From an uncultured bacterium (GTDB lineage Bacteria; Patescibacteriota; Minisyncoccia; Phycocordibacterales; UBA6065): a stretch of DNA of 64,000 nt. Positions 5,069-51,230 of this stretch are shown here, in pieces. The notes beneath the pieces are model-generated. The model was not told where the DNA came from. It searched no databases and saw nothing but the letters and a program-made list of their open reading frames with translations. The stretch lies in assembly GCA_963841935.1 (NCBI GenBank), contig CAWJEP010000001.1:10487-74486 (forward strand), given 5' to 3'. Numbering within the stretch: position 1 is the stretch's first letter; the number at the start of each line of letters is the position of its first letter. A program made the position numbers and the translations under genes.

Positions 5069-5145
5069 AAATTAAACCCTGTTCACCTGGAAAGCGTAAT
5101 TGCCGTCCATGTAACAGGATTCAATTTTTAAAAGAGCTATCTTGG

Positions 5146-5173: not shown

Positions 5174-5180
5174 TAGCACA

Positions 5181-5212
5181 AAAAACCGCCCTTGCGGGCG
5201 GTTTTTTGTTTA
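5181..5212. terminator. rho-independent terminator after rpsJ
   Basis: aaaaaaccgccc ttgc gggcggtttttt is a perfect hairpin with A/T runs on both sides. The rpsJ stop codon (5210-5212) abuts it. Confidence 0.65.
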
Positions 5213-5606
5213 CGCCATCTTTACATCTATATTGACGCCGGACGGAAGAGAAAGGTTCGTCAGATGCTTCGATGATTTTCGGGTTCGGGTTGAGGATGTC
5301 GATAAGGCGCTTGTGAACGCGCATTTCGAATTGTTCGCGGGCGTTTTTGTAGACGAAAGAAGCGCGATTGACCGTGTATTTTTTGATTTCGGTCGGAAGC
5401 GGAATGGGTCCCAAGACTTCGACATCATATCGGAGCGCCGTGTCGATGATTTGCTTGACCGAGGTGTCGAGGATTTTCGATTCGTAAGCGCGGACCCTGA
5501 TACGAAGTCGCGGCACGACTTCCGCCTTGGCGACTTTGGCCACAGCTTTTACAGCCGGCTTTTTCGACACCGTCTTTTTCTTTATTTCTTTCGGTTCGGT
5601 TGCCAC
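5210..5606 (-). CDS. rpsJ: 30S ribosomal protein S10 with a Lys/Ala-rich N-terminal extension; apparent +1 frameshift near 5262-5266
   Basis: Frame A gives ...RLRIRVRAYESKILD...FEMRVHKRLIDILNPNPKIIEA and then runs on through the terminator hairpin. Frame B gives the canonical S10 C-terminus LTNLSLPSGVNIDVKMA* ending exactly at the terminator. Deleting one T from gcaTctgacg restores the normal protein. Confidence 0.85.
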
Positions 5607-24259: not shown

Positions 24260-26320
24260 TTATTTATTCTCCAAAGCTTGAACCTCGGCTTTTAGCGAGT
24301 CTATTTCCGTTTGCTGTTCCTTTACCGCTTCTATTAGAGGCGCGACGAGATTTTGATATTCCACGGATTCAAGTCCGGTTTTGGGGTCTGTCTCCACCAA
24401 GTCCGGGAAAACTTTCTGCACGTTTTGAGCGATTAGACCTACCGACGGCTCGCCGTTGGCTATCCAATTGAACGTCACGCCGTTTAATTGTTCGATTTTT
24501 GAAATGGCGTCCGTAATCGGCTCTATGTTTTCCTTCAACCTTTCGTCCGAACCTTGAGACCATGTGCCCCAATACGTACCGTTGCCATAGAGACGGAATA
24601 TTCCCCCGCCGTTCGCTCCCGTATGCGCGCCGATGTCTACTTCGTTGTCTACTTGAAGAAGTCCGGAACAATTGCCGCAACCGCTCGTCGAGCCTTGAAT
24701 CCAAGTATATCCGTCAAGATACGTGGTAACGCCCGGCGTTACCAAAAACTGCAAGCTCGTAACGGCGAACTCTCCATCCGATTCCCCGCCGCCGCGTAGC
24801 CACGTGTAACCGGGCAAGTATAGCGAAGTCGAATTGTTCGGAGAATAAATAGTCCAGTTGCCTTGATTATTCAAAAGTCCGAACTCGCTCCCGTCCGCGT
24901 ATATGTAACCGCCACTTCCTCCGCCGTAAAGAACGTGAATGTTTCCGTTGACGGATAGAGATTGGTCCGGAGAAGCCGTGCCTATGCCGACAAAGCCGGG
25001 AAAATAAGTGTAGCCGCTCGTGCCGCCGTCGATTTCCAAATAACCGGCGGCGTCGCTATGAATACCGCCACGGGCTTGGAGTTGCGACTGAAAATATACC
25101 GTCCCACTATTGAAATACGCGCCACCGGGAACTATTATGTAGGACGAGGCCGAGATGTATGGGTTAGACGGATAGAAAGACATGTTGCCGTAAAACTCCG
25201 TCCCCGTTTGGTTGGCCGAAACATTGAGAGCCCAATTACCCTGATTGTTTAGAAGTCCGAAATTGCTTCCGTCGCTGTAAATATATCCCAAAACGCCGGA
25301 ATTATTGACCAAATCGATATTGCCGGCGACGGAAAGTTTTTGACCTGGACTCGCCGTGCCGATGCCTACGTTGTTGTAGACTTCCAATTCGAGAGGATAC
25401 GAGGTTATGCCTGTTTTGACTGCCTCGATGTGTCCGACGGAGCCGTCAAAAGATACTCCGACTCCCCCGGAAGTGCCGTCCCCGGGGTCGTAGGAGCCGC
25501 CGGCAAAAAGTCCCCTACCGGCCACGTCGAGTTGTGTGGAACTGCCCGGCACCACGTCCACGCCAACGCTGCCTCCGCTGTAATATATATTCGAACCGGA
25601 AGTCGTCCACTGACTACTCACGACGGAAGGCCAAGAGCTTATACAATTTCCCGCGAGACAAATCTCCGAACTCGCCCATAAATTTGCCAAGGCAAGTCCT
25701 TGTCCGCCGTAGACACTGCCGTTCGCGTCGCTTTCATAAAGCCATCCGTTAGAATAAAAATTGAGACATTGTGTGCCGCTCCCGCCGCAAATAACGCCAA
25801 GATTACCGTATCCGCCGGCGGTGGAATGAATAGCGTAATTTGAACTAAGGGCGCCAACGGTAACGGAGTTCGGCATTGACACGTTGTCCGTGCCATAAGG
25901 CACTTCCACCGCCCAGTTCGTGTTGCTACCAAGCAGTCCGAAACCGCCGGTGTCGCCGTACAAGACGCCCGAGCGCGTGGAACTATTAACAAAAGCATCT
26001 ATTCCGACACTTCCGCTGGAAGAATTTATTCTCTCAACATTGTTCCAATACGAACCCGTGACATCAAGCTTGTAAGACGGACTCGTGTTGCCTATACCAA
26101 CGTTTCCGTATTGGACGATGAGACCGTCTGCCGCGTTACCCGTGTTTAAAAGAAGACCTCCAGTCTTTGCTTGAGCCGTGCCGGAAATATTGAGAGGTGT
26201 GGAAGCGTTATTGCTCGGCGGAGTACCGGTCGGCCCAACCCATTGAGCGGATGCTATGACTGGAAATAAAAGAAAGAGGGAGATGCTAGCGAGGAGTATG
26301 AAGCGCTTTTGTGTGTTCAT
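24260..26320 (-). CDS. secreted tail-fibre-like repeat protein with C-terminal intramolecular-chaperone/autoprotease (peptidase S74-like) domain
   Basis: It has a signal peptide and repeated NVGIGT(A/S)SP..L.V.GNI motifs. The C-terminus reads SDERLKENIEPITDAISKIEQLNGVTFNW...GLIAQNVQKVFPDLV...LIEAVKEQQTEIDSLKAEVQALENK, typical of self-cleaving endosialidase/tail-spike chaperone domains. Confidence 0.7.
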   Translation of the reverse strand: MNTQKRFILLASISLFLLFPVIASAQWVGPTGTPPSNNASTPLNISGTAQAKTGGLLLNTGNAADGLIVQYGNVGIGNTSPSYKLDVTGSYWNNVERINSSSGSVGIDAFVNSSTRSGVLYGDTGGFGLLGSNTNWAVEVPYGTDNVSMPNSVTVGALSSNYAIHSTAGGYGNLGVICGGSGTQCLNFYSNGWLYESDANGSVYGGQGLALANLWASSEICLAGNCISSWPSVVSSQWTTSGSNIYYSGGSVGVDVVPGSSTQLDVAGRGLFAGGSYDPGDGTSGGVGVSFDGSVGHIEAVKTGITSYPLELEVYNNVGIGTASPGQKLSVAGNIDLVNNSGVLGYIYSDGSNFGLLNNQGNWALNVSANQTGTEFYGNMSFYPSNPYISASSYIIVPGGAYFNSGTVYFQSQLQARGGIHSDAAGYLEIDGGTSGYTYFPGFVGIGTASPDQSLSVNGNIHVLYGGGSGGYIYADGSEFGLLNNQGNWTIYSPNNSTSLYLPGYTWLRGGGESDGEFAVTSLQFLVTPGVTTYLDGYTWIQGSTSGCGNCSGLLQVDNEVDIGAHTGANGGGIFRLYGNGTYWGTWSQGSDERLKENIEPITDAISKIEQLNGVTFNWIANGEPSVGLIAQNVQKVFPDLVETDPKTGLESVEYQNLVAPLIEAVKEQQTEIDSLKAEVQALENK

Positions 26321-26341: not shown

Positions 26342-26602
26342 CTATTTCGCCTGAAGTGAGTCGAGAATGTTCTGTTCGCTTGAACTTGAGGTCGTCTTTT
26401 GCGGCGCAGACGTGGCGTTCAGACTGTAGAGAGCGCGTTTCTGCGCCGGCGTAACTCCCTTGAAAAAATTCGGTTGCGCCGACAGATTCTCTAGGGTTGT
26501 CTTTGTGATTTGCGATTGGTTTGAAATAAGAAAGTAGCTGACAACAAAATAAATGATACCGGCAAGAGCGAGAACAATGATTGCTACAAGTATTTTTTTC
26601 AT
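26342..26602 (-). CDS. small single-TM protein (hypothetical)
   Basis: MKKILVAIIVLALAGIIYFVVSYF is the TM helix, followed by an ST-rich tail. Confidence 0.4.
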   Translation of the reverse strand: MKKILVAIIVLALAGIIYFVVSYFLISNQSQITKTTLENLSAQPNFFKGVTPAQKRALYSLNATSAPQKTTSSSSEQNILDSLQAK

Positions 26603-27801
26603 TATATTTCTTGAAATTGTGGATTAAACGTCGTTGGCGTGATGATTAGATTTTTTACCGAAGAACTGACGCCCGATGACGTGCCTTGGAGAGTGATGTT
26701 GCAGGGATTCGGACTCCCGGAGCAATATGAAGCGGTCAATGGTTCATTGATTTCCAATTGGAAAGTGAAGCTGCCGTTTGGACCGATGATTACCGGGCTT
26801 GGGTTCGCGGTGTAAGCGCCGCCGTTTACCGAGTAGAGCGCCGTGGTCGAAGCATTGGGCATCGTCGGATAACCGGAAATGGAAACCGTGACGTTGCCGC
26901 TAAATCCGCCGACGGGATTTACCGTTATGGTTTTTGTCTGCGACTGTGACCAGCCGGCGGGCAAGAAGCTTATTTTTATCGTGTCGTCTGGACCAAGAGA
27001 GAAACCCGGCGGCTGCGAGCCGACGGCGAACGAGACGTTTGACGATGCCACGGTGTTGCCGCCGGACGTGCAGGTTATATTGAAAGCGTAAGAACCGGTG
27101 GTAAGTCCTTGGGTTGCCGTCGAGCCGGACGAAGTGATGCCCGTCACGGTGGTAAACTGCGTGGCGCCCGAAGAAGTTTTCGAAAGCGTGCACGTGGCTC
27201 CGGAAAGATTTACCAGAGTGTAGACAAGATTCACGACCGTACCGTAAGGCACATTATTGTTGTTGGCGACCGATGTCCCGAGTGGAGATTGGGCGTCGAG
27301 GCCGACGCTCGAAGAAAGTTGCACGCCGTTCGTCCCGGCCGCGTTGAAACTTACCCAGCCGAGAAGGCCGCTGTCCCAAGCGTAGCCGTCGAAAAAAGAA
27401 CCCGAAAGCGTGACGCCGTAATTCGTGCCGGAAAGAGAAATCCAGCCGTCCCAACCGTTTCCGTCGGCGGAAACGGCCTTCGCCCAGCCGATGAGATTTG
27501 TGCCGCTCATCTGGGCGTTCTCCGCCGACGTTCCCGAGCCGCTGGGGAATCCGGAGAGACCGCCAAATTGTATCCAGCCCACGGAATCGGACCACGCGTA
27601 GCCCGTGAGTGTGCCGTCGTTGTTGTCCGTCACACCATAGTCCACGGCGCCGCAGGTGCTCGTGTTCGTGCAATTGAAACTAATCCACCCGGCATCATCG
27701 GACCACGCCCAACCAGCCATATTGTTTTCCGTTCCTGCGTGGGCAAACGCCGGTAGGATAAAAATAGAAACCGAAATTAAAAATAGTGCGAACCTCTTCA
27801 T
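26602..27801 (-). CDS. secreted protein with G(W/Y)AWSD..GWISF repeats and a C-terminal domain shared with the TSP1 protein
   Basis: It has a signal peptide and four or more GWAWSDDAGWISF-like repeats. The last 130 aa or so align with the C-terminus of 29728-31532 and end ...TPTTFNPQFQEI*. Confidence 0.6.
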   Translation of the reverse strand: MKRFALFLISVSIFILPAFAHAGTENNMAGWAWSDDAGWISFNCTNTSTCGAVDYGVTDNNDGTLTGYAWSDSVGWIQFGGLSGFPSGSGTSAENAQMSGTNLIGWAKAVSADGNGWDGWISLSGTNYGVTLSGSFFDGYAWDSGLLGWVSFNAAGTNGVQLSSSVGLDAQSPLGTSVANNNNVPYGTVVNLVYTLVNLSGATCTLSKTSSGATQFTTVTGITSSGSTATQGLTTGSYAFNITCTSGGNTVASSNVSFAVGSQPPGFSLGPDDTIKISFLPAGWSQSQTKTITVNPVGGFSGNVTVSISGYPTMPNASTTALYSVNGGAYTANPSPVIIGPNGSFTFQLEINEPLTASYCSGSPNPCNITLQGTSSGVSSSVKNLIITPTTFNPQFQEI

Positions 27802-27822: not shown

Positions 27823-28323
27823 TCAAAGTTTCCTGTCTCGAATGCCTAGTTTGTATCCGACAAAGCAAAAAATGGGGTGAATGGCGAGTATCAAAAGGAC
27901 GCTCAATAAATAAGCGGAAAGCGTTATGTATCCCATGAAAAAAACTATGGCGCCGGTAAAAATTATGTAATTACCGTGGTCTACTACCGGCACATAACCG
28001 CCGTCGGGAACATGAAATCTTCTTTTTATGAAACTGCCGAGAATGTGGCCGAAAAAACAGCCGAAACCTATTATGATACCGACCGGGGAATAAAAAATCT
28101 GAATTAAAATTCCGACAAGAAGAGAAACTACCAGCCCCCACCATGTGGCGGATTTTCCGATAAGTCTCTCGCCCCAAAGACGGAGCCCTCCGTCGAACGG
28201 CGGATCAAAATTTTCCAAATGATAAAGTTTTTTGAAGGCTCCGAGAAAATTGTGGGACATATTCACCAGTCCGCAGAGAATGGCGAACCGTAAAGCTTCC
28301 ATGAATATAAAATAATTCATCAT
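27823..28323 (-). CDS. CTP-transferase-1 superfamily membrane protein, closest to CDP-archaeol synthase (CarS/DUF46) or short CdsA/dolichol-kinase-like enzymes
   Basis: The 166-aa product has GKSATWWG (compare G.GKTWEG/WRG), GHILGSFIKRR (compare GDL.ESFLKRR) and VVDHGNYIIFTG (compare LLDQLDFVIGA of CarS). About five TM helices. Confidence 0.5.
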   Translation of the reverse strand: MMNYFIFMEALRFAILCGLVNMSHNFLGAFKKLYHLENFDPPFDGGLRLWGERLIGKSATWWGLVVSLLVGILIQIFYSPVGIIIGFGCFFGHILGSFIKRRFHVPDGGYVPVVDHGNYIIFTGAIVFFMGYITLSAYLLSVLLILAIHPIFCFVGYKLGIRDRKL

Positions 28324-29721
28324 TTAATATGTGACCACGAAATTATTCACCGGAAAGGCTTCCACGGTATGAATTCCTCCGGCCAAAATCAGGAGTTCGC
28401 TCTCGACATCGACGATTCTCGGTATGCATATAAAATAATCAAAGGTCACGGCGTAATAATTCCATCCGTTTTTCTGTCCGAATAAATGGATGTCGGAAAT
28501 GTTCGCGAGACTGTGTGTCGCGGCCGGCTTCACGAGTGGCTCCTTGGAAACGACAAAAAGAGTGCTCGTGGCATTCACGCGCCAATTGTCACACACAACA
28601 TTGTCAAAAGATATCGGGAAACGATTTGTCGGGTCGCCGGTTTCTTTCGCTATATTTCCTATGGTCACGGGACTTGTCGTGGCGATGTCATAGAAATACA
28701 AATCCCCGATTTTTTCCAAAAATCTCCCCGGCGCGGACGCGTCATAAGTTCCAAGATAAACATTTTGATAAGCTATGGACGTCGTGTCGTAAGAAATGTC
28801 TCCTTCCGTTGAAACAAATACCGGGACTAAAAAACAAATACCCAAAAGCAAAACGGCGGTGGCGCCGAAGACGCGAAAGCGCGAGGCGCCTCTTTCCGCG
28901 AGAAAAAACCATCCGAAATACACGAGTTCCATGCCAAAAACATGTTCAAGATACACCGATACTTGAGTGTGACTTATGGCGCCGAAGGGATAGGCGATAA
29001 TAACGGCGATGGGCGTGACTAGAGAAAGAGCAACGGGGAAAATCCAGCCGCGGAAACTTTTAGGTGCGTAGCCGTAGCACATAACGAGCAGGATGAGAAA
29101 AGCCGGAATAGCTTCGGAGTTCAAAAGTCCTCCGTCGAAAATATTTTTCAAAAAAGAAAGCAGAGCGATGGCGAAAAGTATCTGGAGGCCGAATCTTTTT
29201 TTATTTTTCCCGACAAAATCGAACAGGAGCCATATTCCAAGGATAGACACGGTAAGACATCCGGCAAGTCCGACCCAGCCGACCCATGTCGGCAAAATAT
29301 TGAGGTACGCGAAACCAAAATCGGCTTTTGTCTCGAGCGCGAGCCGAAGCTGGGTCGGAAAAAAAGATGAAACCAGACCGAAAGGAAATTTCAAAACATG
29401 AGTGTGAAAGAAATGCGTCGTAGAAATATCCCTTTCCCCTATCGCTGACAGAACATAGTTCGCCGGAACGGCGAGCATTTTATAAAAGTAGAAAGTTACG
29501 CCAAGACCGAGAAGGAAAATCGCCGTCGAAACGATGAAAAATATATTTTTCAGGGGAAATTTCCGCGCGACAGGCGTTTCGACGGCGATTTTTTTTCGCC
29601 ACGCGATGATATTTACGACAGCCAAAAGCAGAATGGCGAAAAGAAAGAGAAAAACTTTCACGTCACTGCGACCCGCGGCGAAAAGGTCGGTAATAATGTG
29701 CAGAAAGAAGAAATAATTCAT
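28324..29721 (-). CDS. large polytopic membrane protein with a C-terminal extracytoplasmic domain (hypothetical; GT-C glycosyltransferase-like or sorting-enzyme-like)
   Basis: The 465-aa product has 10 or more TM helices followed by a soluble tail of about 150 aa. It is tightly coupled to the flanking genes. Confidence 0.55.
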   Translation of the reverse strand: MNYFFFLHIITDLFAAGRSDVKVFLFLFAILLLAVVNIIAWRKKIAVETPVARKFPLKNIFFIVSTAIFLLGLGVTFYFYKMLAVPANYVLSAIGERDISTTHFFHTHVLKFPFGLVSSFFPTQLRLALETKADFGFAYLNILPTWVGWVGLAGCLTVSILGIWLLFDFVGKNKKRFGLQILFAIALLSFLKNIFDGGLLNSEAIPAFLILLVMCYGYAPKSFRGWIFPVALSLVTPIAVIIAYPFGAISHTQVSVYLEHVFGMELVYFGWFFLAERGASRFRVFGATAVLLLGICFLVPVFVSTEGDISYDTTSIAYQNVYLGTYDASAPGRFLEKIGDLYFYDIATTSPVTIGNIAKETGDPTNRFPISFDNVVCDNWRVNATSTLFVVSKEPLVKPAATHSLANISDIHLFGQKNGWNYYAVTFDYFICIPRIVDVESELLILAGGIHTVEAFPVNNFVVTY

Positions 29722-29727
29722 CGAAAC

Positions 29728-31532
29728 TTATATCTCCTTAAAATTCGGATTGAAACTGTTTGGACTTACGGTGAGGTTAAATGTCGTGGATGTGTCGCCG
29801 CCGGAAGCGTCAAACGTCACATAGCAGGAATTGGTAAAGCCCGAAGGGAATTGTATTTGGATATTGAGACCGACATTTCCGGACGGCGCTCGATAATTAC
29901 CGGAACCGTCGTCGCTCATTACCGTGGAAGGACTTTGAGTGAATGCTCCGCCGTCAAAAGAGTAGCCGGAGGGATTCGGCTGGCAGGTGGTTGATTGAAC
30001 GGTCACAGTTACGGGAGAACTGAATCCTCCCGTAGGATTGACTTCCAGCGTGCTTACGTTCGTCGTGCCGCCTTCGTTGGCTACGAACTGTATGCTTGCC
30101 GAAGACGGGCCGGAAAGAGTAAAACCCGACGTGGGATTGTTGCCGTTACTACCGCCATTGTTACCGCCGTTGGTACCGCCGTTGGTACCGCCGTTGGTAC
30201 CCGTTCCAGTCTGACCCGATGGATAAGTGCACGGAGCGGTTCCCTCATAGTTGGTTGCGTTTGGATCTGTGCAAAGCTCCGAATATGTGCACGGTAGAGC
30301 GCCTCCGTAATTATTTGCGTTCGGGTCGACGCAAAGTTGCGCCGACGGATATGTGCACGGCGCGTAGCCGTCATAATTCGACGCGCTCGGGTCCGTGCAT
30401 TCCGCCGGACAAGAAGCCGTCGTGGAAATAACCGACCCGTCCCAACACGTCTGGGTTGTGGGATTTGTCGTGCACGACTGAGTGTTGCAATCCTGACTTT
30501 CCGAACTGCTTCCGGAACAAGTCGCGCCGCCGTTTGCCGGAGTGGGATTCGTGCAAGTTCTGGTCTGTGTTTGATTTCCGCCGCCACAAGTAGCAGAACA
30601 AGTTCCCCATCCAGACCAAGCCGACCAGCCACCGTTTACGGGACATACTTGGGTGTTGCAAGTTTGAGAACTGCTTCCGGAACAAGTCGCGCCGCCGTTT
30701 GCCGGAGTGGGATTCGTGCAAGTTCTGGTCTCCGTACCACCGCCGCAAGTTTCTGAACACGTTCCCCAACTTGACCAGCCGCCGTCGACTTTCGTGGGCG
30801 GAGTAACGCACGCTGGTTCAGTACATGTTTGAGTTTGCGTGCCTGTGCCGCTAGTATCTCCGGAGCAATCAGCACCGCCGTTTGCCGGAGCGGGATTCGT
30901 ACACGTTTTGGTCTGTGTACCGGTACCGCAAGTTACACTGCACGTTCCCCAAGCCGACCATTCGCCATTTACAGGACACGCTTGGGTATTGCAAATTTGA
31001 GATTCGGAACTGTCTCCGGAACAATCGGCTCCGCCGTTTGCCGGAGCAGGATTCGTGCAAGTTCGCGTCGCGGTTTGCGTGCCGCCACCGCAAGTGGCTG
31101 AACATGTTCCCCAACTTGACCAGTCGGACCAGCCGCCGTCCACCTTTTGTGGTGTCGGATTTGTTGAGGGACAATCGCTAAGAGCGCTTTGAGAGAACTC
31201 ATTCGTCACGCCGTCGGGACACGTCCAGTAACAAGGTTCTGTTCCGCGGTAGTTTGTTGCGGTGTGATCTAAACACGCGTTACCGCAAAATAGTCCGCAC
31301 TCGCCATTTGGATACGATGTTGTGGGGTCATTGGGACAAGTGCAGTCCGGGAGACTTCCGCCGCCTCCATAACCGCCACCGCCAAAAGGACCGCAGTTAA
31401 TGGCTGAGTTACTGCATGCGCCGCCATAATACCGCCAGATTCGCTCCCCACTTGGGCAAAAGCTAAATGAGAAGATAAAGAAAAAATCAGAGAGAAAATA
31501 AATATTCTTGATAAATATAATCTGGTATTCAT
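29728..31532 (-). CDS. secreted Cys-rich protein with four thrombospondin type-1 repeats; signal peptide in a different frame (frameshift near 31441-31457)
   Basis: There are four copies of W(S/T)[18 protein letters not shown]..RTCTNP.PANGGA.CSG....Q.CNTQ.CP (WSxW and CSVTCG motifs). Three C(T/V)DP.A.NY....PCTY repeats follow. Then comes a TNGG linker and a C-terminal domain ending [10 protein letters not shown]. The signal peptide [26 protein letters not shown] starts at ATG 31532-31530 in another frame, and the main frame is open upstream to about 31520. Confidence 0.7.
30370..31160. repeat. intragenic tandem repeats of about 165 bp (TSP1 modules)
   Basis: Two copies are near-identical: aactgcttccggaacaagtcgcgccgccgtttgccggagtgggattcgtgcaagttctggtct at 30504-30565 and again at 30669-30731. 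Two more diverged copies lie upstream. Confidence 0.7.
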
Positions 31533-31542
31533 ATTTTTATTT

Positions 31543-32949
31543 TTATATGTTTCCACTCATGGTCGGTGGTTGAGGCAAGGGCTTTTTCTTTTTTAACACA
31601 ACCACAATAGCCAAAATAACAAGAACGCCTGCGATTGCATAATATATGTACATCGTGGTGTTGGATGTCCATTGAGTCTTCGGTGACGGACACCTGTTCG
31701 CGTCACATATGTACAGAACGGATGAGGACGCGAGGATTGTCCCGTACTGGTCGGTAGTCTTTATGCTGAGAGTTAATGGTTCAAAAATATTTGTCGTGGG
31801 AGAAAAATGAATCTGGAAAGGATAGGATGAGGCGTTTCTTTCGGAGAAACCTCCGGACCAGACGCTCTTGCCAAGAGAATCAACAAGAGAAAGGTCAACC
31901 GTCGTCGTGGCCGCGGTGTTGGAGTAATTTTGGGTGAGGCATCCTGCCACGCTGTTTGAAACTCCAGCGGAAATTGGAAAATTGGAGAGGTAAAGCGAGC
32001 GGGCGCCCGGCTCCACGATGTCACTTCGACCTATGCGAAGAGAGAACATTGATTCTTTGTCGCCATCCTTTAGTTCTCCGACCAAAAGATATTTTGCGTG
32101 GACAAAATTGTTGTACGTGAAAGAAACGACACTATTTTTGTTCGGCGAAAGTTGAACGGAATCGGTTTCCGTGGCAACAAGCGCTGTGGGATTTATAAAA
32201 TTGCCGCTATATAGATACCAACCGACCGTGACATTATGAGAAGCGGTGTATGTATTCTCTACGCCAACTGAAGTAACCGCCGTCGGCACGGTAATTGTCG
32301 AAAGCATCTGCGTCATCGGCACAACGCCGTTCACTTTCATCGTCGGCAAATCAAAAAATGATGTTTGTTCTTCCGTTCCGGTAACGGCCAACGGATATGT
32401 GGCTAGCGGAATATTGAGATATTCGTTTCCTCCAATGGCAAATTGGTCGGAACCATTTAAAAACAAGTCAACTTGATATGGTCCGGTAACTAAATCTCGT
32501 GGCACGGGGTAATTGAAAGAAAATGACGCTGTTGCTTTGGGGTTTAGGTATATTCCCGTCAAAGGAATAATCCGGTCCACCGTGTCTGTCGCCATATCAT
32601 AGGAAGAACCGGATTTTTTTTGAAGTTTTACTACGCGAGCGACAAGAGTTAAGTCGGAAACCGGATAACTGTTGAGATTATCGATAGTGCCGGCAATAAT
32701 CACATTGCTACCGGCAGAGACTTTGGTATTACCCACAAGAAAACTCGCTCTAACGAGAGAGTTAGCCAAAAGACATGTCGAAGGGAAAATCAGTTGCGTC
32801 GGCGTGGTGGACGAAAACGAAATACCGGCTCCCAACTGAGAAACGTCGGCCGCCGAGACAAATTGAAAAGAAAGGAACGGTAGGAGAAAAAAAACAAAAG
32901 AAAATATAAGACGCCTAGAACTCATGCCGAAAAGTATACCAACTGACAT
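31543..32949 (-). CDS. type-I membrane surface protein (signal peptide, beta-rich ectodomain, C-terminal TM anchor plus KKKK stop-transfer)
   Basis: The 468-aa product ends with ...YYAIAGVLVILAIVVVLKKKKPLPQPP. It overlaps the downstream gene by 14 nt. Confidence 0.55.
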   Translation of the reverse strand: MSVGILFGMSSRRLIFSFVFFLLPFLSFQFVSAADVSQLGAGISFSSTTPTQLIFPSTCLLANSLVRASFLVGNTKVSAGSNVIIAGTIDNLNSYPVSDLTLVARVVKLQKKSGSSYDMATDTVDRIIPLTGIYLNPKATASFSFNYPVPRDLVTGPYQVDLFLNGSDQFAIGGNEYLNIPLATYPLAVTGTEEQTSFFDLPTMKVNGVVPMTQMLSTITVPTAVTSVGVENTYTASHNVTVGWYLYSGNFINPTALVATETDSVQLSPNKNSVVSFTYNNFVHAKYLLVGELKDGDKESMFSLRIGRSDIVEPGARSLYLSNFPISAGVSNSVAGCLTQNYSNTAATTTVDLSLVDSLGKSVWSGGFSERNASSYPFQIHFSPTTNIFEPLTLSIKTTDQYGTILASSSVLYICDANRCPSPKTQWTSNTTMYIYYAIAGVLVILAIVVVLKKKKPLPQPPTMSGNI

Positions 32950-33009: not shown

Positions 33010-34482
33010 CTACTCGTCATTGGAAGTCAGTCCTTTACTTGTCGATTGCCCTAGCACCTTCTTACGAATGCGTGCCAGTTCTGCGTAGACGATTGGTCTT
33101 AGAACATGAGCGCTCGCCGCTTCCTGAAGAAACAAACGAGCCGTTTCGTCCTTGCCAGCTTCCACATAGTAAAGACCAATAACGGACATGAGCGCCGGAT
33201 CGCGAGAACCGTCACTGTACGGCTTGAGCAGAATTGCCTCTGCTCGAGCGCCGTATAGCGGAATGTATGGCGACAACACCGAACTCTTGGCCATATATCC
33301 CATCTCCTTAACGATGAAGTTGCCCTGAATCCGAGCGCGAGTGACCGGGTCGGCATCCGATAGATGCAGTTCCGGAATCACGACCGAATCAACCTTCAAG
33401 AGGTTGAGTGGATTCTCCATCGCCTGCGGCAAATAGTCCGAAAGCTCTTTGGTCACATCGGCGAAACCCATGCCGAAACACTGCCTAAACAGTGCCTCGG
33501 TAGCAGGCTCGCGCGATGACTTGTCGACGAAATCCCACAGTGCCTTGCGGCGCGCGTGAGTCTCGTCTACAAATACCCAATACAAGAAAAGAGAGCCTTC
33601 GTAATGCCACAAGTCCAGCTGGTACTGCGACCCTTGCTGCGCCTCGCCGAACGGTCCGGTAAGGAAGCTTCCCATAGGTATGAGTGACGCCGGTTCGACT
33701 CTGTAGAGCTTGCCGTCGTCATCCTTGAATACCTTATAGCCTTGTGGATTTGGGGTTCCAGCGGTTACCGGAACATTAATCCTCGGCCAATACACCGATG
33801 GAATCGTCAGTGCCTCCTCGTCAGACCAGCGGATTTGCTGATAGAGAGAAAACACCGTCGACTGGAACCAGTAAGGAAGCGTAGGGATCCGACGCTCAAG
33901 CATGTTGAGCACATAGCCGATGGTTAGGCTGATGCCCCTGCGATCGCCATCATTTAGCTCGACCATCATCGTGGTGGATTCGGAATCCGTGAGACTGACT
34001 TGGGGAACCATGCCATAAAGCGATGATACCCTGCCGTTGGAGGTTACTCTCGAGGATCTTTCCGAAGACTCGGAATCTCCAACGGCTTTCACGATTTCCT
34101 TGCCCATCTTGTCTCCCATTTCTGGGGGGATGAGGATGAGTGTTATTGGCGCGGTGCGCTCGAACTGTAAACGCGACGGCAGAATCTCTTCCAACTCCGC
34201 TAGTCGTTGCGTAAACTGTCCGACAAACCACAGGGTCGTACTGTCGCTACACTTGGAGATGACTTCGAGGCCCGGAACAGATAAGTATGTCCAAGGCTTC
34301 GTCCCCTTCTGCGGATTTTCCTCCGTAACCATAAATGGCGGGAGATCTACCCTCTTACCTTCGCGAAACGCCTTGAGCTCTTGGTCGCTCCTGGCATCCG
34401 CGTTGATGTTCCTGACAAAGAGTCCGAGTGCGACGAATGCCGCAACAAGAACTCGAATCACTAACTTGTTGTTGAGATGCAT
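33010..34482 (-). CDS. secreted hypothetical protein (490 aa)
   Basis: It has a signal peptide and no recognisable family. It is the first gene of the minus-strand surface operon. Confidence 0.5.
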   Translation of the reverse strand: MHLNNKLVIRVLVAAFVALGLFVRNINADARSDQELKAFREGKRVDLPPFMVTEENPQKGTKPWTYLSVPGLEVISKCSDSTTLWFVGQFTQRLAELEEILPSRLQFERTAPITLILIPPEMGDKMGKEIVKAVGDSESSERSSRVTSNGRVSSLYGMVPQVSLTDSESTTMMVELNDGDRRGISLTIGYVLNMLERRIPTLPYWFQSTVFSLYQQIRWSDEEALTIPSVYWPRINVPVTAGTPNPQGYKVFKDDDGKLYRVEPASLIPMGSFLTGPFGEAQQGSQYQLDLWHYEGSLFLYWVFVDETHARRKALWDFVDKSSREPATEALFRQCFGMGFADVTKELSDYLPQAMENPLNLLKVDSVVIPELHLSDADPVTRARIQGNFIVKEMGYMAKSSVLSPYIPLYGARAEAILLKPYSDGSRDPALMSVIGLYYVEAGKDETARLFLQEAASAHVLRPIVYAELARIRKKVLGQSTSKGLTSNDE

Positions 34483-34698
34483 TTTTGTGCACTCCTTTCT
34501 GTTTTGATTGTTACTTTGTGTGTGAAACTGACAAAAATGTCAATGTACTATCACCTACATTATACTACAATGACTAGGCACTTGTCAACTACCCTAAAAA
34601 GTGTTCTGCTCATTGACTCCCCATTAGCCCCGTGGTAGGCTTATTTCGTTACAAGTTCGCCTCGCGGCGGACTTCTTTTATTAATAGACCACATATAT

Positions 34699-35865: not shown

Positions 35866-37850
35866 ATGAATTCATACATTATTTTCGCCCTCGGAAGCGC
35901 GGTGCTCGCGATTGTTTACGGACTCGTATTGATAAAAAATATTTTGGCGAAGCCCGCTGGCAACGACAAGATGAAAGAAATCGCCCTCGCCATTCAGCAA
36001 GGCGCCAAAGCGTATCTCGCGAGGCAATACAAAACTATCGCTGGAATCGCCGTCGTTCTCTTTATCGTTTTGTGGCTCGCGCTCGGACTTACGCTCGCTT
36101 TAGGATTCCTTACCGGCGCGATACTTTCCGCTCTTGCCGGATTTATCGGTATGAATGTTTCCGTTCGCGCCAATTCTCGAACGGCTGAAGCCGCGAGAGG
36201 CGGTATTGACGCCGCGCTCAAACTGGCTTTTAACGGCGGCGCGGTCACGGGACTTCTCGTCGTCGGTCTCGCCCTTCTCGGCGTCACTTCTTTCTACGCG
36301 ATTACCGGCGGCGTTGATTCGCTCATCGGGCTCGCCTTCGGAGCGTCGCTTATTTCCGTTTTCGCCCGCCTTGGCGGAGGTATTTTTACAAAAGCAGCCG
36401 ACGTTGGCACCGACCTCGTCGGTAAAGTCGAAGCTGGAATCCCCGAGGATGACCCGAGAAACCCCGGAGTCATCGCCGACAACGTCGGAGACAACGTCGG
36501 AGACTGCGCCGGCATGGCCGCCGACCTTTTTGAAACTTACGCCGTCACGACTATCGCCTCGATGATGCTCGCGTCAGTGATATTTCCGGGAAATCAAAAC
36601 GCCGTCATATATCCTCTCGTCCTCGGCGGTGTGGCGATAATCGCTTCCATCATCGGCACTTGGTTCGTACATATGGGCAAATCAAAAAATATTATGGGTG
36701 CGATGTACAAAGGCCTCGCCGTTGCCGGAGTTCTCGCCGGAATCGCTTTCTACTTCGTGACGAAAGTTTTGATGGCGGCAAACGGACAATTTTCCACTGG
36801 CAATCTTTTTGGTTGCGCCGTCATCGGACTTCTCGTTACCGCGGCACTTGTCGTCATCACCGAATATTACACTTCAACCAAATACGCTCCGGTTAAATCC
36901 ATCGCCAAAGCGTCGGTCTCCGGTCACGGCACGAATATTATTCAAGGTTTGGCCATGTCGATGAAATCAACCGCTTGGCCGCTCATTAGCATCGTCGTCG
37001 GAATTCTCTTCGCTTATCACTTCGGAGGCCTTTACGGCATCGCTATCGCCGCGATGAGTATGCTTTCGATGGCCGGAATCATTATCGCCATTGACGCTTA
37101 CGACCCATCACCGACAACGCCGGTGGCATCGCAGAAATGGCCGACCTTCCGCAAGAAGTCCGCGATGTTACCGACCCGCTTGACGCCGTCGGCAACACGA
37201 CCAAAGCCGTTACCAAAGGTTATGCCATCGGCTCCGCCGGACTCGCGGCTCTCGTTCTCTTCGCTTCTTACACTCAAGCTACTCACGGACTTCATTTCGA
37301 GCTCGGTGACCCGCGTGTCATCGTTGGACTCTTTCTCGGAGGACTTCTTCCTTATTACTTCGCGGCGCTTTCGATGGAAGCCGTCGGCAAAGCAGCGGGA
37401 CAAGTCGTCGAAGAAGTGCGAAGGCAATTCCGTGAAATCAAAGGCATTATGCAAGGCACGGCCAAGCCAGATTACGCTCGTTGCGTCGACATCGTGACTT
37501 CGGCGGCAATCAAAGAAATGATTCTGCCGGCACTCATTCCTGTTCTCGCTCCGATTGTCGTCGGTTTCGTCCTCGGACCGGTTGCTCTCGGCGGACTTCT
37601 CGTCGGCTCGATTGTCACCGGACTTTTCGTTGCCATCTCGATGACTTCCGGCGGCGGCGCTTGGGACAACGCGAAAAAACTTATTGAACAAGGCGAGCAC
37701 GGCGGTAAAGGCAGCGACGCTCACAAAGCGGCAGTCACCGGCGACACCGTCGGCGATCCTTACAAAGACACCGCCGGTCCCGCCATCAATCCGATGATTA
37801 AAATCCTGAACATTGTGGCGCTTCTTATCGTCAGCTTCTTAATCAAATAG
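35866..37850 (+). CDS. hppA: membrane-bound proton-translocating pyrophosphatase (H+-PPase); apparent -1 frameshift near 37101-37104
   Basis: The motifs are [38 protein letters not shown] and then [21 protein letters not shown] in the downstream frame. Frame 1 reads ...[12 protein letters not shown], whereas the expected [22 protein letters not shown] is restored by inserting one G at tacg|accc. Confidence 0.9.
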
Positions 37851-38258: not shown

Positions 38259-39284
38259 ATGTCACACAATCATTCATACAAAGTCTCGGTAAAAAAGCTT
38301 CCAAAAAGCCAGCTCGAAATCGAGTCTGAAATTCCCGCGGACGAGTTTTCAGCCCATATCAAAGACGCCGTTGACGAAGCGGTGCGCGAAGCGGAAATAA
38401 AAGGCTTTCGCAAAGGCGCCGCGCCGGAGAAACTCGTCCGCGAGAAAATCGGCGATGACGCGCTTCTTCACGAAGCCGCGAGTGCCGCCATCTCTCACGC
38501 CTACGGCCACATCGTCGAAGCGGAAAAAATAGACGCCATCGGCAGACCGCAAGTGACCATCACGAAAATCGCCGAAGGCAATCCTTTGGGATTTAAATTC
38601 GTCACCGCCGTGGTGCCGGAAATAAAAGATTTCGATTACAAAGAAATCGCCAAAAAAGAAAATAAAAAAGAAAAATCCAAATCGGAAGTTACCGAAAAAG
38701 AATTTGCCGAGACACTTGAAAATGTTTTGAAAAATTATCAGCCGAAGCGACAAAATTGGAAAAAGCTCCGGAACTTTCGGACGAGCTCGTGAAAAAATTC
38801 GGCGAATTTTCTTCGGCCGACGATTTCAAAAAGAAACTTCGCGAACAAATGCTTGCGGAAAAAGAACAAAAGGAAGTGGAGAAAAAACGCGTAGCTCTTA
38901 TAGATGCTTTGGTCTCCGGAGTCTCCATAGAAATTCCGGAAATACTTGGTGCAAAGCGAGCTTGACAGGATGCTTTCGGAAATGAAAAACGACGTTTCAC
39001 GGATGGGACTTTCGTGGACTGACTATCTGAAACACTTGAAGAAAACCGAGGATGATATGAAAAAAGATTGGAACGAAGCCGCGAAAAAGAGAGTGATGCT
39101 CGAACTCATCACCGAACACATAGCCAAGACGGAAAAAATTTCCGCCGACGAGAAAAAAGTTTCGGAGGAAGTAAAACACATTCAAGAACACCACAAAGAC
39201 ATAGACGCCGCGCGCGCCCGTTCGTATTTTGAACACATTTTCCAAAACCAAGCGGTCTTCGAATTTCTAGAGGGACAAAAGTAA
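38259..39284 (+). CDS. tig: trigger factor (short form without a PPIase domain); two apparent frameshifts (about 38740-38756 and about 38948)
   Basis: The N-terminal ribosome-binding domain has GFRKGAAPEKLVREKIG. The middle segment ...KAPELSDELVKKFGEF... and the C-terminal ...VQSELDRMLSEMK... lie in three different frames. The joins sit at an A-run and a GG-run. Confidence 0.75.
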
Positions 39285-45599: not shown

Positions 45600-45670
45600 T
45601 GCGGGATGGGAGAATCGAACTCCCGACCACAGTTTGGAAAACTGTTGTTATACCATTTAACTAATCCCGC
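45600..45670 (-). tRNA. tRNA-Gly (anticodon UCC)
   Basis: The minus-strand sequence is GCGGGATTAGTTAAATGGTATAACAACAGTTTTCCAAACTGTGGTCGGGAGTTCGATTCTCCCATCCCGCA. It has a 7-bp acceptor stem, a GGGAG/CTCCC T-stem and a TTCGATT T-loop. No encoded CCA. Confidence 0.85.
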
Positions 45671-45737
45671 CTACGCTATCGCTTCGGCGGGCAGGCCCGC
45701 TTGAGCAAAAACACTTTACCACAAGACATCAAAAATC

Positions 45738-46054
45738 TCACTCGCTCTCCCCTTTTGAGAGCCGCACGACTTCGTCGAAATCGTCTTCGGCGGATAATTT
45801 ATTTTTTTTCTCGAATCCGCATTTCACGCACTGCTGAATTATGGAAAAATCCCCTTTCGTTTTGATTACCGAGATCGGTTTCATCATTCCTCCGCACTTT
45901 TCCGCCCGATCACCAGGATTTTTGTCGACATGTTTCGACCAGAGGCAATGCGGACAATGATTTGTGTAACCATTACCGACGACTTCCCTTCCGCAATTCT
46001 CGCAGACGAAATTTTCGACCGTTTTTTGGAATTTTTTCGTGTCCTTTAGCATTT
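45738..46054 (-). CDS. RNHCP-domain zinc-ribbon protein
   Basis: CENCGREVVGNGYTNHCPHC...CVKCG. The start is trimmed to MLKDT because the longer ORF overlaps tRNA-Pro. Confidence 0.55.
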
Positions 46055-46055
46055 T

Positions 46056-46126
46056 TCGGGGCGCCGGGAATCGAACCCGGGCCGCATGATCCCAAATCAT
46101 GAATACTACCTCTATACTACGCCCCG
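46056..46126 (-). tRNA. tRNA-Pro (anticodon UGG)
   Basis: The minus-strand sequence is CGGGGCGTAGTATAGAGGTAGTATTCATGATTTGGGATCATGCGGCCCGGGTTCGATTCCCGGCGCCCCGA. The anticodon stem is CATGA/TCATG and the loop is TTTGGGA. Confidence 0.85.
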
Positions 46127-46177
46127 TGAAACATCATACTAGCACACTCGCCCCGCCGAAGCTTCCGCGGCGGCGGG

Positions 46178-46585
46178 CTACTCGGTAATATTTACTTTTT
46201 CTATCATTCTTACTCGGGCTTTTCTCGTATTTTGGTCTAGTTCAATGGCCAAAATGTTCCAAAAGAAATCCATATCCCGAAAATCAGGCCTTTGGGCGAA
46301 ATATATTTGCGTTACGCGCGAAAGCTTTTTCATTTTGGAGTAAGTCATATTTTCCTCCGGTCTAAAGGTTTCATGTGAAACCTGAATATCCGTTGTTTCA
46401 CGTGAAACACTTTTTACCTCAAAAAAGTGAATTTCATTGCCTTTTCTGGCGACAATATCGATTTCTCCGGCTTTTCTAGTGAAATTCCTTTCGATTACCG
46501 TGAAACCCTTATTTATCAAGTATTTACAGGCAATTTCCTCGCCGATTTCACCTATTTTCTGTGTTTCAGAGGTAAATACTTTCAT
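46178..46585 (-). CDS. YraN/UPF0102 family endonuclease
   Basis: IGEIGEEIACKYL..KGF.VIERNF..K.GEIDIVA.....HFFEVK. The start is at MKVF. The upstream TTG-initiated extension overlaps the palindrome cluster. Confidence 0.65.
   Translation of the reverse strand: MKVFTSETQKIGEIGEEIACKYLINKGFTVIERNFTRKAGEIDIVARKGNEIHFFEVKSVSRETTDIQVSHETFRPEENMTYSKMKKLSRVTQIYFAQRPDFRDMDFFWNILAIELDQNTRKARVRMIEKVNITE
46367..46411. promoter_or_regulatory. pair of GTTTCA-N2-TGAAAC palindromes inside yraN
   Basis: GGTTTCATGTGAAACC (46367-46382) and TGTTTCACGTGAAACA (46395-46410). Confidence 0.4.
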
Positions 46586-46591
46586 TTTGTA

Positions 46592-46622
46592 TGTTTCACG
46601 TGAAAAGTGTTTCAATTGAAAC
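46592..46622. promoter_or_regulatory. pair of GTTTCA-N2-TGAAAC palindromes immediately upstream of the yraN start
   Basis: TGTTTCACGTGAAAAG followed by the perfect GTTTCAATTGAAAC. Confidence 0.4.
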
Positions 46623-46756
46623 TATTTCTCTATATTTCTCCGTAATTATAGGACAAATGTCCTTGATAATGTGATGTCTTTTACACCTAATCCACAATGT
46701 TATCCACAGAAATATAAACAGACGGTGATTCGGAAAATCCGCCGATTTTCAGAGGG

Positions 46757-46827
46757 TGCGGGTAGGGAGAATCGAACTCCCACCTCATCCTTGGCAAGGA
46801 CGTGTCCTACCACTAAACGATACCCGC
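46757..46827 (-). tRNA. tRNA-Gly (anticodon GCC)
   Basis: The minus-strand sequence is GCGGGTATCGTTTAGTGGTAGGACACGTCCTTGCCAAGGATGAGGTGGGAGTTCGATTCTCCCTACCCGCA. Confidence 0.85.
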
Positions 46828-46875
46828 GTGAAAGCAATTCTAAACGAAATAACCAAAAACTCCAAATCCTATTTG

Positions 46876-46947
46876 TGCGCCCGGAGGGACTTGAACCCCC
46901 AATATCGGTTCCGAAGACCGGTGTGATATCCATTTCACTACGGGCGC
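46876..46947 (-). tRNA. tRNA-Arg (anticodon UCG as read; one C-A mismatch in the anticodon stem)
   Basis: The minus-strand sequence is GCGCCCGTAGTGAAATGGATATCACACCGGTCTTCGGAACCGATATTGGGGGTTCAAGTCCCTCCGGGCGCA. Confidence 0.75.
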
Positions 46948-49982: not shown

Positions 49983-50903
49983 TTATGATTTTTTGTTGTG
50001 AAATTTTTTGTGGACGTCGCGCAGATGTTTGTCGGTGACATGGGTATAAATCTGCGTCGTCGTAATGCTCGAATGGCCAAGGAGGGTCTGGACGCTTCTA
50101 ATATCGGCGCCGTTACTGAGCAAATCCGTGGCGAAAGAATGGCGGATAACATGGGGCGTGACTTTTTTGGAAACGATACCGGCTTTGGTCGCGTAATATT
50201 TCACGATGCGCTCGACACTGCGACGGGAAAGAGGCATCGATTCGCCTTTGAATTTTTTCTCCGTCGCGATTTTCACGAACAAAGCGTCATCGACATCGTC
50301 TCGTTTCGCCAAATAAGCTTTAACGGCCTTTTTCGCGTCGTCGGAAAGGAAGACCACGCGGACTTTTTCACCCTTTCCTCTAATAGAAAACTCGTCTCGG
50401 GTAAAATCGATGTCTCTGGTGAGGGAACAGAGCTCGGCAACGCGCAGTCCGGTGGAAAAAAATAGCTCGAGGATGGCTTTGTCGCGGAGAGACTTCATAT
50501 CGGAGCCGTTCGGAGCGTCGAGAAGCCGACGAAGCTCTTCTGACGTGATGAAATCGATCTGCCTGTCGGAAACTTTAGCAAGCTCAATGCGGTCGGAAGG
50601 AAGGGAGGTGATGTTTTGTCTGGCCAAATATTTCAGAAACGAGCGCAGGGCTATCAAATAATAATTTTGGGTTTTCTTTTTGAGTGTCTCGCCGGTGGCT
50701 CGCAGGTTGCCGGCTTTCTGACGGTTGAGAAAGAGGCGAAAATCACGGACGGCCTCATCCGTGATTTTCGCCGGATCCTCGCTCTTCAAAAATCCGAAAA
50801 ACCGCGTGAGATATCGGTCGTAATTTTCGATGGTCTTGAGCGACCGACCTTTTTCTATTTCGGTATATTCCAGAAATCGTCTTTTAAGTTCGGATAGTTT
50901 CAT
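49983..50903 (-). CDS. xerC: tyrosine recombinase XerC/XerD-like
   Basis: The C-terminus reads [39 protein letters not shown], giving the R..H..R..Y catalytic tetrad. The start is trimmed to [10 protein letters not shown]. The upstream ORF extension overlaps rpsO and is not credible. Confidence 0.8.
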
Positions 50904-50957
50904 GTCGCACAATATTATATCATACTTGCGTTTTTTAGTTATGTATGCTACGCTCAT

Positions 50958-51230
50958 TTGGCAATGATTTCGAAAACAAAGAAAACCAAGGTCATAAAGG
51001 AAGCCGCTCGCCACACGGGCGATACTGGCTCGCCTGAAGTCCAAATCGCCATTTTGACCCGTAGAATCGAGGAACTTGCCTCGCATTTGAAGGACCATAA
51101 AAAAGACATTCACTCGCGACGCGGACTGCTTTCCATGGTGGCCAACCGCCAGAAACATTTGAAATATTTGGCGAAAAAGTATCCCAAGCATTACAGCGAG
51201 ATAGTGAAGAAACTCGAGCTTAAAAAGTAG
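50958..51230 (+). CDS. rpsO: 30S ribosomal protein S15
   Basis: ...[51 protein letters not shown].... Confidence 0.9.

Follow-up and report, generated by a model that had tools for sequence, protein, structure and literature searches.

Organization of the locus

A gene for a small membrane protein of the CTP-transferase superfamily, related to the archaeal CDP-archaeol synthase CarS, lies in a 64,000-nucleotide stretch of DNA (hereafter, the window) from an uncultured, ultrasmall bacterium of the Patescibacteriota, in the candidate phyla radiation (CPR) (GenBank assembly GCA_963841935.1, contig CAWJEP010000001.1, positions 10,487 to 74,486 of the forward strand). An initial annotation, made from the sequence alone, had placed this open reading frame (ORF) at 27823–28323; the frame is real, its coordinates are exact and it lies on the minus strand, which had not been specified. 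A second ATG at 28320 is the likelier start, since homologues begin MNY, and would yield a protein of 165 aa. The gene and that of a polytopic membrane protein encoded next to it (hereafter, the partner) are intact and co-linear with their homologues, and dN/dS ratios of 0.08–0.23 between orthologues reveal purifying selection on the CarS-like gene, which shows that it is functional. Together, the two genes form a conserved module.

In the window, the CarS-like gene is the fifth of eight same-strand genes running from 34482 to 24260 on the minus strand with gaps of 0–60 nt, and the TAA stop codon of the partner gene immediately precedes its ATG (0 nt apart), so that the co-operonic arrangement with surface-protein genes proposed at first holds (Table 1). 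The promoter sequence upstream of this cassette agrees with the sigma-70 consensus at all twelve positions, which is notable for a CPR genome.

Table 1. Features of the CarS-like gene, its partner and the surrounding gene cassette (positions in the window; TM, transmembrane)
Feature	Position	Strand	Remarks
CarS-like CTP-transferase-family protein	27823..28323	minus	166 aa, ATG start, five predicted TM helices, CPR 'DH' subfamily
G56-K-S-A-T-W-W-G63 block	28135..28158	minus	G56, T60 and G63 conserved; canonical Lys/Arg position (59) is Ala
H93	28045..28047	minus	Aligns with TmCdsA D219, the first metal-dyad Asp in CdsA ('GD' Asp in CarS)
S97-F-I-K-R-R102	28018..28035	minus	Core nucleotide/phosphate-binding motif common to CarS and CdsA
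D115-H-G-N118	27970..27981	minus	Replaces CarS D-Q-x-D and CdsA D-R-x-D; N118 at the second dyad Asp position (TmCdsA D249)
465-aa polytopic partner	28324..29721	minus	No known family
Sigma-70-type promoter, TTGACA-18-TATAAT	34559..34588	minus	Upstream of the cassette; 12/12, consensus match only
490-aa exported protein	33010..34482	minus	First cassette gene; no Pfam match; 74% identical orthologue in L001
468-aa exported protein	31543..32949	minus	Signal peptide and C-terminal TM anchor; 58% identical orthologue in L001
493-aa ORF, four thrombospondin type-1 repeats	29728..31209	minus	PF00090, E = 1.9e-35; tail codons 29731–29760
399-aa secreted protein	26602..27801	minus	Signal peptide, Trp-rich repeats, conserved tail; tail codons 26605–26634
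86-aa protein	26342..26602	minus	N-terminally anchored; conserved cassette member
686-aa secreted fibre protein	24260..26320	minus	Last cassette gene; C-terminal Peptidase_S74 intramolecular chaperone domain (PF13884, E = 3.9e-18)

Family and fold of the CarS-like protein

A Pfam scan returned PF01864 (CarS-like, DUF46) as the single match, at 55.9 bits against a gathering score of 22 (E = 7e-15), whereas PF01148, to which CdsA and dolichol kinase belong, gave no match at E ≤ 1. This outcome bears out the CarS/DUF46 assignment of the initial annotation. CTP-dependent polyprenol kinases such as dolichol kinase and phytol kinase are annotated within PF01148, and membership of the polyprenol kinase family is not supported, given the missing match to that profile. 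Among PDB sequences the sole match was ApCarS (5GUF), with E = 2e-5 for the single sequence and 1.2e-23 for the subfamily profile. An AlphaFold2 (AF2) model of the protein consists of five long helices (pLDDT 76.6, pTM 0.68), and its only significant Foldseek match in the PDB was again 5GUF (probability 1.00, TM-scores of 0.62 and 0.65, 152 aligned columns). On these profile and model comparisons, membership of PF01864 and of the CarS fold, within the CTP-transferase superfamily, is established.

The likeness to ApCarS and other CarS proteins (5GUF, PF01864, NF003114) covers length (~165–180 aa), the five-TM fold and the motifs P-x-D, G-x-x-T-x-x-G, G-S-F-x-K-R-R and D-x-x-D in cytoplasmic loops. 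As first remarked, the size of 166 aa resembles CarS (160–185 aa) rather than CdsA (270 aa in native TmCdsA). The three motifs quoted in the initial annotation, V113-V-D-H-G-N-Y-I-I-F-T-G124, G96-S-F-I-K-R-R102 and the G56 block, are all present in the DNA, and the family match is far beyond chance. Their equation with the CarS/CdsA blocks held in part: all three align with CarS, but K57 is shifted by two residues from the canonical Lys position (59), where the protein has Ala; His116 replaces the Gln of D-Q-x-D, and the dyad positions 93 (His) and 118 (Asn) are non-acidic. Longer CarS-like proteins, checked for domain fusions, were uninformative.

Against the NCBIfam CarS equivalog NF003114 the protein scored 65.2 bits, where the cut-off is 148. 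It should not be called a CDP-archaeol synthase; by profile score it is not an orthologue of that enzyme. The CDP-diacylglycerol synthase (CDS) signature KDx5PGHGGx2DRxD, sought as a regular expression, is absent from the window and all fetched loci, and this signature search yielded no canonical cdsA in any of them. Likewise, the Pfam scan of window ORFs (~40 of ~65 candidate genes) and the locus genes examined showed neither GGGPS nor DGGGPS.

A distinct CPR subfamily with a remodelled metal site

A word-indexed search found three close relatives (86, 72 and 50% identity), followed by a DPANN archaeal CarS at 32%. An exhaustive profile search of 1.84 billion representatives returned 917 relatives, including a graded series of full-length proteins of 160–172 aa. 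In a neighbour-joining tree, 47 sequences with a D-H-x-x motif fell in a near-pure clade comprising 59 of the 148 representatives (hence ~59 subfamily clusters, counted at 50% identity). This DH clade is marked by the signature GH..GSFIKRR...DH[GA]D, and its source names, where given and as taken from the records of metagenome-assembled genomes (MAGs), are Candidatus Saccharibacteria, Paceibacterota, Patescibacteria group and Nomurabacteria, with one cluster also bearing a Thermodesulfobacteriota MAG label. The pattern of the window clade occurs in one of 185,579 species genomes. By tree position and signature, the CPR/Patescibacteria branch is a distinct bacterial subfamily, forming a separate clade.

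Residues were compared between the DH group (n = 49) and a canonical DQ group (n = 80) defined by Gln116, 129 sequences in total. The nucleotide-binding core is kept: K100 and R101 are invariant (129/129), S97 is present in 121/129, and both groups retain D44, G56, T60, G63, G92, S97, F98, K100, R101, R102, G108 and D115, the segment S97–R102 aligning with GSFVKRR of ApCarS and S-A-L-K-R of TmCdsA. Elsewhere the subfamily, and the window protein with it, departs from archaeal CarS, to which this protein of a CPR bacterium is 24–34% identical. Position 59, Lys or Arg in 78 of 80 canonical sequences, is Thr, Ile or Ala in the DH clade and Ala in the window; position 93, Asp in 61/80, becomes His in 34/49 and in the window; position 116 changes from Gln to His in the DH clade and in the window; and position 118, Asp in 67/80 canonical and 42/49 DH sequences, is Asn in the window.

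These replacements bear on the possibility that the protein is a housekeeping CDP-archaeol or CDP-diacylglycerol synthase which replaces CdsA for bulk phospholipid and whose operon position is incidental. Such a role would suit a PF01864 member with the CarS fold, the NCBI name 'CDP-archaeol synthase' carried by its relatives, and the lack of cdsA in the window and in every locus. It is at odds with the score far below the equivalog cut-off, with the subfamily-wide changes at K59, D93 and Q116 to which the window adds D118N, and with the rare, accessory distribution of the subfamily. Tight coupling to an unrelated conserved partner and the surface-protein operon setting count against it too, as does the missing GGGPS or DGGGPS gene among the scanned window ORFs and locus genes. 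Moreover, we know of no CPR bacterium that makes archaeol, and overall we regard the housekeeping role as very improbable.

The metal site itself was mapped through the dyad described for TmCdsA (PMC7018664) together with PDB chain sequences; the TmCdsA crystal chain carries a 20-residue tag, so that chain numbering equals native numbering plus 20 (native D219 is chain D239). Native D219 is the Asp of F-G-D-I-F-E-S-A-L-K-R and native D249 the second Asp of D-R-I-D. By motif alignment, these two residues correspond to the Asp of G-D-x-x-G-S-F-x-K-R-R and the last Asp of D-Q-x-D in CarS, and to H93 and N118 in the window protein. Across the window protein and 153 retrieved family proteins (154), the combination D93/D118, the usual state in canonical CarS, was found in 64, H93/D118 in 35 and H93/N118 in seven; the window protein thus has neither acidic dyad residue. 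In TmCdsA the Asp219–Asp249 dyad holds a Mg/K di-metal centre, and D249 is conserved across all CDS enzymes (PMC7018664).

One consequence could be that the CarS-like protein of the window lineage has lost catalysis and binds CTP or lipid in a regulatory or scaffolding role within the complex with its partner. The two non-acidic residues at positions 93 and 118 point that way, as does a loss-of-function allele of Streptococcus mitis CdsA in which Asp is changed to Asn at the first dyad position (PMC7018664). Against this, eukaryotic CDS enzymes function with Gly at that same position (PMC7018664). Within the N118 lineage alone, the nucleotide-binding core remains under strong purifying selection (dN/dS 0.08–0.10 for the gene), and D118 is kept in 42 of 49 subfamily members. 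His and Asn can, besides, ligate metals. We also considered compensation by an Asp at position 107, the 'KD' position of CdsA, which occurs in 7/8 N118 sequences and 18/35 D118 sequences; the difference is not significant (Fisher p = 0.11). A purely non-catalytic subunit is accordingly quite unlikely in our judgement. Since purifying selection persists, the N118 lineage included, the catalytic centre is probably remodelled, with His as a likely ligand, rather than dead.

The partner protein and the two-gene module

A scan with a 12-sequence alignment recovered 22 additional metagenome loci with subfamily members (32–60% identity), and adjacency of the partner was judged by tblastn, ORF maps and profile search. 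In all window-clade loci, and in 17 of the 18 metagenome lineages that could be assessed, a partner homologue adjoins the CarS-like gene. The sole assessable locus without it is L020 (identical to L021); three further loci end too near the CarS-like gene for its presence to be judged. The partner gene usually lies upstream, overlapping or abutting, and downstream in L024 and L025. In the Nomurabacteria genome locus L033, the pair overlaps by 20 nt.

Members of the partner family have 435–465 aa, and the window protein (465 aa) is predicted to comprise ~8–10 helices in residues 1–304 followed by a beta-rich C-terminal domain. Across family sequences as divergent as 17–47% identity, H106, K111, D134, D196-G-G198, C377 and C432 are invariant, and G136 and A138 are also kept. 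When the positive-inside rule is applied to the predicted helices, the conserved polar residues and the C-terminal domain with its two Cys come to lie, by prediction, on the outer face of the membrane.

A Pfam scan of 12 diverse members assigned no family and gave no Wzy_C, glycosyltransferase (at E ≤ 1) or Exosortase_EpsH match; the partner profile matched no PDB sequence. Weak matches to DUF4131 and MIP (E = 0.014 and 3e-4) fell far under the cut-offs, and alignment by hhalign with the ComEC protein of the window was unsupportive. A relationship to the GT-C (PIG-V-like) enzyme encoded in L028 was likewise dismissed, hhalign showing the two to be unrelated. An AF2 model from six homologues was weak (pLDDT 58.6) and was not used for inference, and Foldseek of this model against the PDB gave nothing below E = 0.8. 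A word-indexed database search, run to deepen the alignment, added one new relative only.

Surface-protein genes around the module in the window

The loci of three close relatives retain the entire eight-gene cassette. The 399-aa protein, which belongs to no Pfam family, is 65–81% identical across all window-clade loci; it contains the Trp-rich units GWAWSDDAGWISF, GYAWSDSVGWIQF, GWDGWISLSG and GYAWDSGLLGWVSFN and ends in the C-terminal tail ...TPTTFNPQFQEI-COOH. The Gly-rich 686-aa fibre protein is conserved in L001, L004–L007 and L010, with a middle region that is highly variable among related genomes. Its Peptidase_S74 chaperone domain is typical of phage tail spikes. A prophage origin of the cassette, hinted at by this domain, was rejected: in related genomes the cassette occupies the same chromosomal site, bounded by nusA and tpiA/pgk, and phage genes are absent there. 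Thrombospondin type-1 (TSP1) repeats, in turn, form a mostly eukaryotic domain. The signal peptide of the TSP1 protein is encoded in a different frame (ORF 31269–31556) from the long frame that enters the repeats, an apparent frameshift.

Genes flanking the cassette are typical of a CPR bacterium and include those for NusA, trigger factor, ClpP, RNase Y, ComEC, RecJ, EF-Tu and EF-G. Two housekeeping genes on the plus strand are split. The H+-pyrophosphatase is broken at ~37100–37500, where ORF 35866–37497 covers Pfam profile positions 1–404 and ORF 37137–37850 positions 415–645, and trigger factor is divided into an N domain (38259–38792) and a C domain (38946–39284). Because these housekeeping genes are frameshifted, indel errors in the assembly are the likely cause and pseudogenes a less likely one; the detached signal peptide of the TSP1 protein is probably the same artefact. 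Elsewhere in the window, a tyrosine recombinase of the Phage_integrase family (49983–51191, minus) and four clustered tRNA genes (45600–46947, minus) are separated by ~3 kb and may mark the edge of an integrated element.

Pilins, C-terminal tails and glycosylation genes beside the module

In Paceibacteria-type loci, a type IV prepilin is encoded directly upstream of the module in L011, L012, L017/L033 and L029, and nearby in L025 and L028. Prepilin assignment is based on a confirmed N_methyl motif in L011, L017 and L033, a T2SSG domain in L029 and, in L012, a motif identified by sequence. The window itself has no pilin gene, the corresponding position being occupied by genes for surface fibres.

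The 399-aa and TSP1 proteins, which flank the module, both end in ...F-N-P-x-F-x-E-I in every orthologous locus. The conserved tail reads ...P-x-x-F-N-P-x-F-x-E-[IF]-COOH in full and ...P-[ND]-[FY]-x-E-F-COOH in a shorter version; it is carried by the two window proteins (tail codons in Table 1), by L001 and L004–L010, by L024 (ends at 8579 and 15579) and by L025 (end at 14954). The large module-flanking proteins of L024 and L025 end in ...V-I-P-N-F-T-E-F and ...V-V-P-D-Y-S-E-F. In a census of the window and 31 loci that took in every ORF from 70 aa upwards, endings of the type [FYW]-x-E-[FIYLVW] were found in 17 of 834, and all 17 are direct neighbours of the module, although these ORFs are not independent and represent about three lineages and two protein families. 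One family is made up of the 399-aa and TSP1 proteins, whose C-terminal ~190 aa are homologous (32% identity, E = 1e-24); the L024/L025 proteins form the second. Homology between the two is not claimed, as BLAST matches were marginal and composition-prone. The tail may serve in sorting or recognition, or it may simply form the final strand of a domain associated with the module.

Directly downstream of the module in L028, positions 2726–5483 encode a DedA/VTT protein, GtrA, a PIG-V/GT87-like polytopic glycosyltransferase and a GT2 enzyme, which by family assignment would make up a complete set for surface glycosylation with polyprenyl-phosphate sugars; DedA proteins are undecaprenyl-phosphate flippases (PMC9876793, PMC12893004). 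In L033, the pilin gene is preceded by one for a phosphomannomutase/PGM.

Two further neighbourhoods stand apart. Downstream of the CarS-like gene in L013 (930–5080) lie genes for a reverse transcriptase (RVT_1), an ABC exporter and, ~3 kb away, a PLD-type (cardiolipin-synthase-like) protein. In L016, L018 and L027, from one Paceibacteria-type lineage, a conserved trio of small exported or anchored proteins is encoded beside the module (e.g. L018 7496–8577, L027 10538–11687); it includes proteins of 136–154 aa that end in ...Y-R-[VI]-[MI]-x-[NS]-D-[SA]-D-[IV]-[VL]-x-x-Y and have no Pfam family.

Comparison with known systems

The closest relatives of the CarS-like protein, the archaeal CarS enzymes, differ from it in setting as well as in sequence: the CPR gene is near-always paired with the novel polytopic partner and lies among surface-protein rather than lipid-synthesis genes. 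With CdsA and YnbB (PF01148) it shares the superfamily and the catalytic core S-x-x-K-R...D-x-x-D. CdsA, however, has nine TM helices, compared with five and no dimerization domain here, and the Asp residues of its dyad are replaced in the window protein. YnbB, a CdsA paralogue, supplies CDP-diacylglycerol (CDP-DAG) for the glycolipid MPIase (GlcNAc-PP-DAG) and thereby offers a precedent for a CTP-transferase paralogue dedicated to a lipid-pyrophosphate-linked sugar and not to bulk phospholipid (PMC7018664).

For the partner, the nearest parallels are pilin-modifying enzymes. TfpO and TfpM are polytopic enzymes of 420–470 aa, encoded beside pilin genes, that modify the C-terminal residue of the pilin (PMC9829042), and the partner resembles TfpO/PilO, TfpM and the arabinosyltransferase TfpW in its polytopic architecture, its size and a pilin-adjacent gene (PMC9829042; bioRxiv 10.1101/2020.04.19.049825). 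The TfpO, TfpM and TfpW enzymes act outside the membrane, use a lipid-linked donor and recognise the extreme C-terminus of their substrate (same sources). The pattern of a pilin-adjacent gene for a protein of 420–470 aa recurs in the partner, with its 435–465 aa and the prepilins upstream in the four cases listed above (L011, L012, L017/L033, L029). Unlike TfpO, TfpM and PglL, the partner has no Wzy_C domain, and the terminal residues are not Ser/Thr: the tails finish with Glu-Ile/Phe, and pilins encoded next to the module with Phe or Trp. To our knowledge, no TfpO-type system has an obligatory CarS-like companion.

A second parallel is the archaeosortase system, in which ArtA acts with PssA and PssD in the lipid anchoring of PGF-CTERM proteins (PMC7157517). 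The likeness consists in three components, a surface protein with a C-terminal signal, a polytopic membrane enzyme and enzymes of a CDP-lipid pathway, which are genomically linked and are each required for covalent attachment of the lipid (PMC7157517). The differences from exosortase and archaeosortase systems are several: here F-x-E-[IF]-COOH closes the protein, so that neither a TM helix nor a basic cluster follows the motif; the partner has no invariant Cys in its membrane domain, its invariant Cys being found only in the predicted extramembrane C-terminal domain, and no EpsH match; and the place of the CDP-alcohol phosphatidyltransferase among the lipid enzymes is taken by a member of the CTP-transferase superfamily.

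A proposed function for the module

The reading we favour, at a probability of roughly 40%, is that the module joins a CTP-dependent lipid-activating subunit to an outward-facing modifier of surface proteins, which it would feed. What this adds to the observations is a topology, a lipid substrate, a chemistry, a hand-over to the partner and a set of protein targets. The CarS-like subunit would face the cytoplasm and bind CTP through the retained S-F-x-K-R-R motif, D44, T60 and D115. It could then activate a lipid phosphate or alcohol of the inner leaflet, a polyprenyl-type carrier or a phosphatidate-like lipid, by transfer of CMP, phosphorylation being the less likely chemistry. The activated lipid, or a lipid-linked donor derived from it, would reach the outer face, where it might serve the partner in modifying or anchoring the exported products of neighbouring genes. 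Candidate targets are the type IV pilins in Paceibacteria-type lineages and, in the window, the surface-fibre proteins and the two proteins ending in ...F-N-P-x-F-x-E-I.

The suggestion in the initial annotation of lipid anchoring, or lipid-linked carrier chemistry, dedicated to surface proteins is a hypothesis that gains strength from the predicted outward-facing partner, the neighbouring prepilins, the module-restricted tail and the one glycosylation set in L028. Several observations weigh against it and against the proposal just made. The partner has no recognisable fold or family, so that its enzymatic nature is assumed, and the conserved module includes no flippase or sugar-phosphate transferase. 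Because both dyad positions of the window protein are non-acidic and an Asp-to-Asn change inactivates S. mitis CdsA, canonical cytidylyl transfer may be impaired or changed. The tail could be just the last strand of a shared domain, and the module-adjacent pilins do not carry it. The glycosylation gene set occurs in one locus only (L028), and phosphomannomutase, encoded before the pilin gene of L033, is a housekeeping enzyme. Finally, adjacency to pilins and adhesins would also suit a role in lipid uptake at host contact.

That last point leads to an account in which the module salvages host lipid: the partner would capture a lipid from the host or environment (lysolipid, phosphatidate or polyprenyl phosphate) and the CarS-like protein would trap it as a CDP-lipid for head-group exchange. 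Patescibacteria are without lipid biosynthesis and their uptake mechanism has not been identified (PMC11665869); if true, salvage would let an epibiont auxotrophic for lipids obtain the components of its membrane. The chemistry would be ancestral for the CarS-like family, the module adjoins structures of host contact (pili, fibres), and the PLD-type gene of L013 lies close by. A subfamily as rare as this one (~59 clusters, with the window-clade pattern in a single species genome) is, by contrast, unexpected for an essential step, none of the loci links the module to a gene for a CDP-alcohol phosphatidyltransferase, and the module-restricted tail motif would go unexplained. We therefore consider salvage unlikely.

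A more specific form of the favoured reading, that of a lipid-activating subunit feeding a surface-protein modifier, would be a covalent surface-protein modification system of a kind not recognised before, in which the CarS-like protein provides a CDP-activated or CTP-derived lipid donor and the partner transfers the lipid, or a lipid-linked phospho-glycan, to exported proteins via C-terminal tails and pilin C-termini. In this full form it is doubtful. If true, it would be a CPR-specific counterpart to anchoring of the GPI or archaeosortase type, and both the enzyme family and the sorting signal would be new.

Implications for Patescibacteria

The bare family call is not new, as databases auto-annotate relatives as 'CDP-archaeol synthase'. 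In our literature search, no publication connected CDP-archaeol synthase with CPR bacteria: CarS is not treated by Coleman (2019) and is reported as absent from Cloacimonetes by Villanueva (2020). Nor did the search find a description of a CPR clade with the H/H(/N) signature, a near-obligatory polytopic partner, linkage to pilin and surface genes, or the F-x-E-[IF] tail. The label 'CDP-archaeol synthase' in Patescibacteria is unsafe; taken at face value, it implies archaeal-type lipid chemistry in bacteria and feeds the debate on the 'lipid divide'.

The near-constant pairing with a membrane protein predicted to face outward, next to pilin and adhesin genes, points to an undescribed system for cell-surface modification or lipid handling. 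Both the F-x-E-[IF] tail and the partner family, in which His, Lys, Asp and D-G-G residues are invariant, are new and directly testable targets. Patescibacteria are obligate epibionts that are unable to make lipids, whose route of lipid uptake is not known and for which pili and surface adhesins are essential (PMC11665869). For such organisms, the module beside pilin and adhesin genes is a testable candidate either for a new pathway of surface-protein modification or anchoring, or for the missing step in lipid acquisition.

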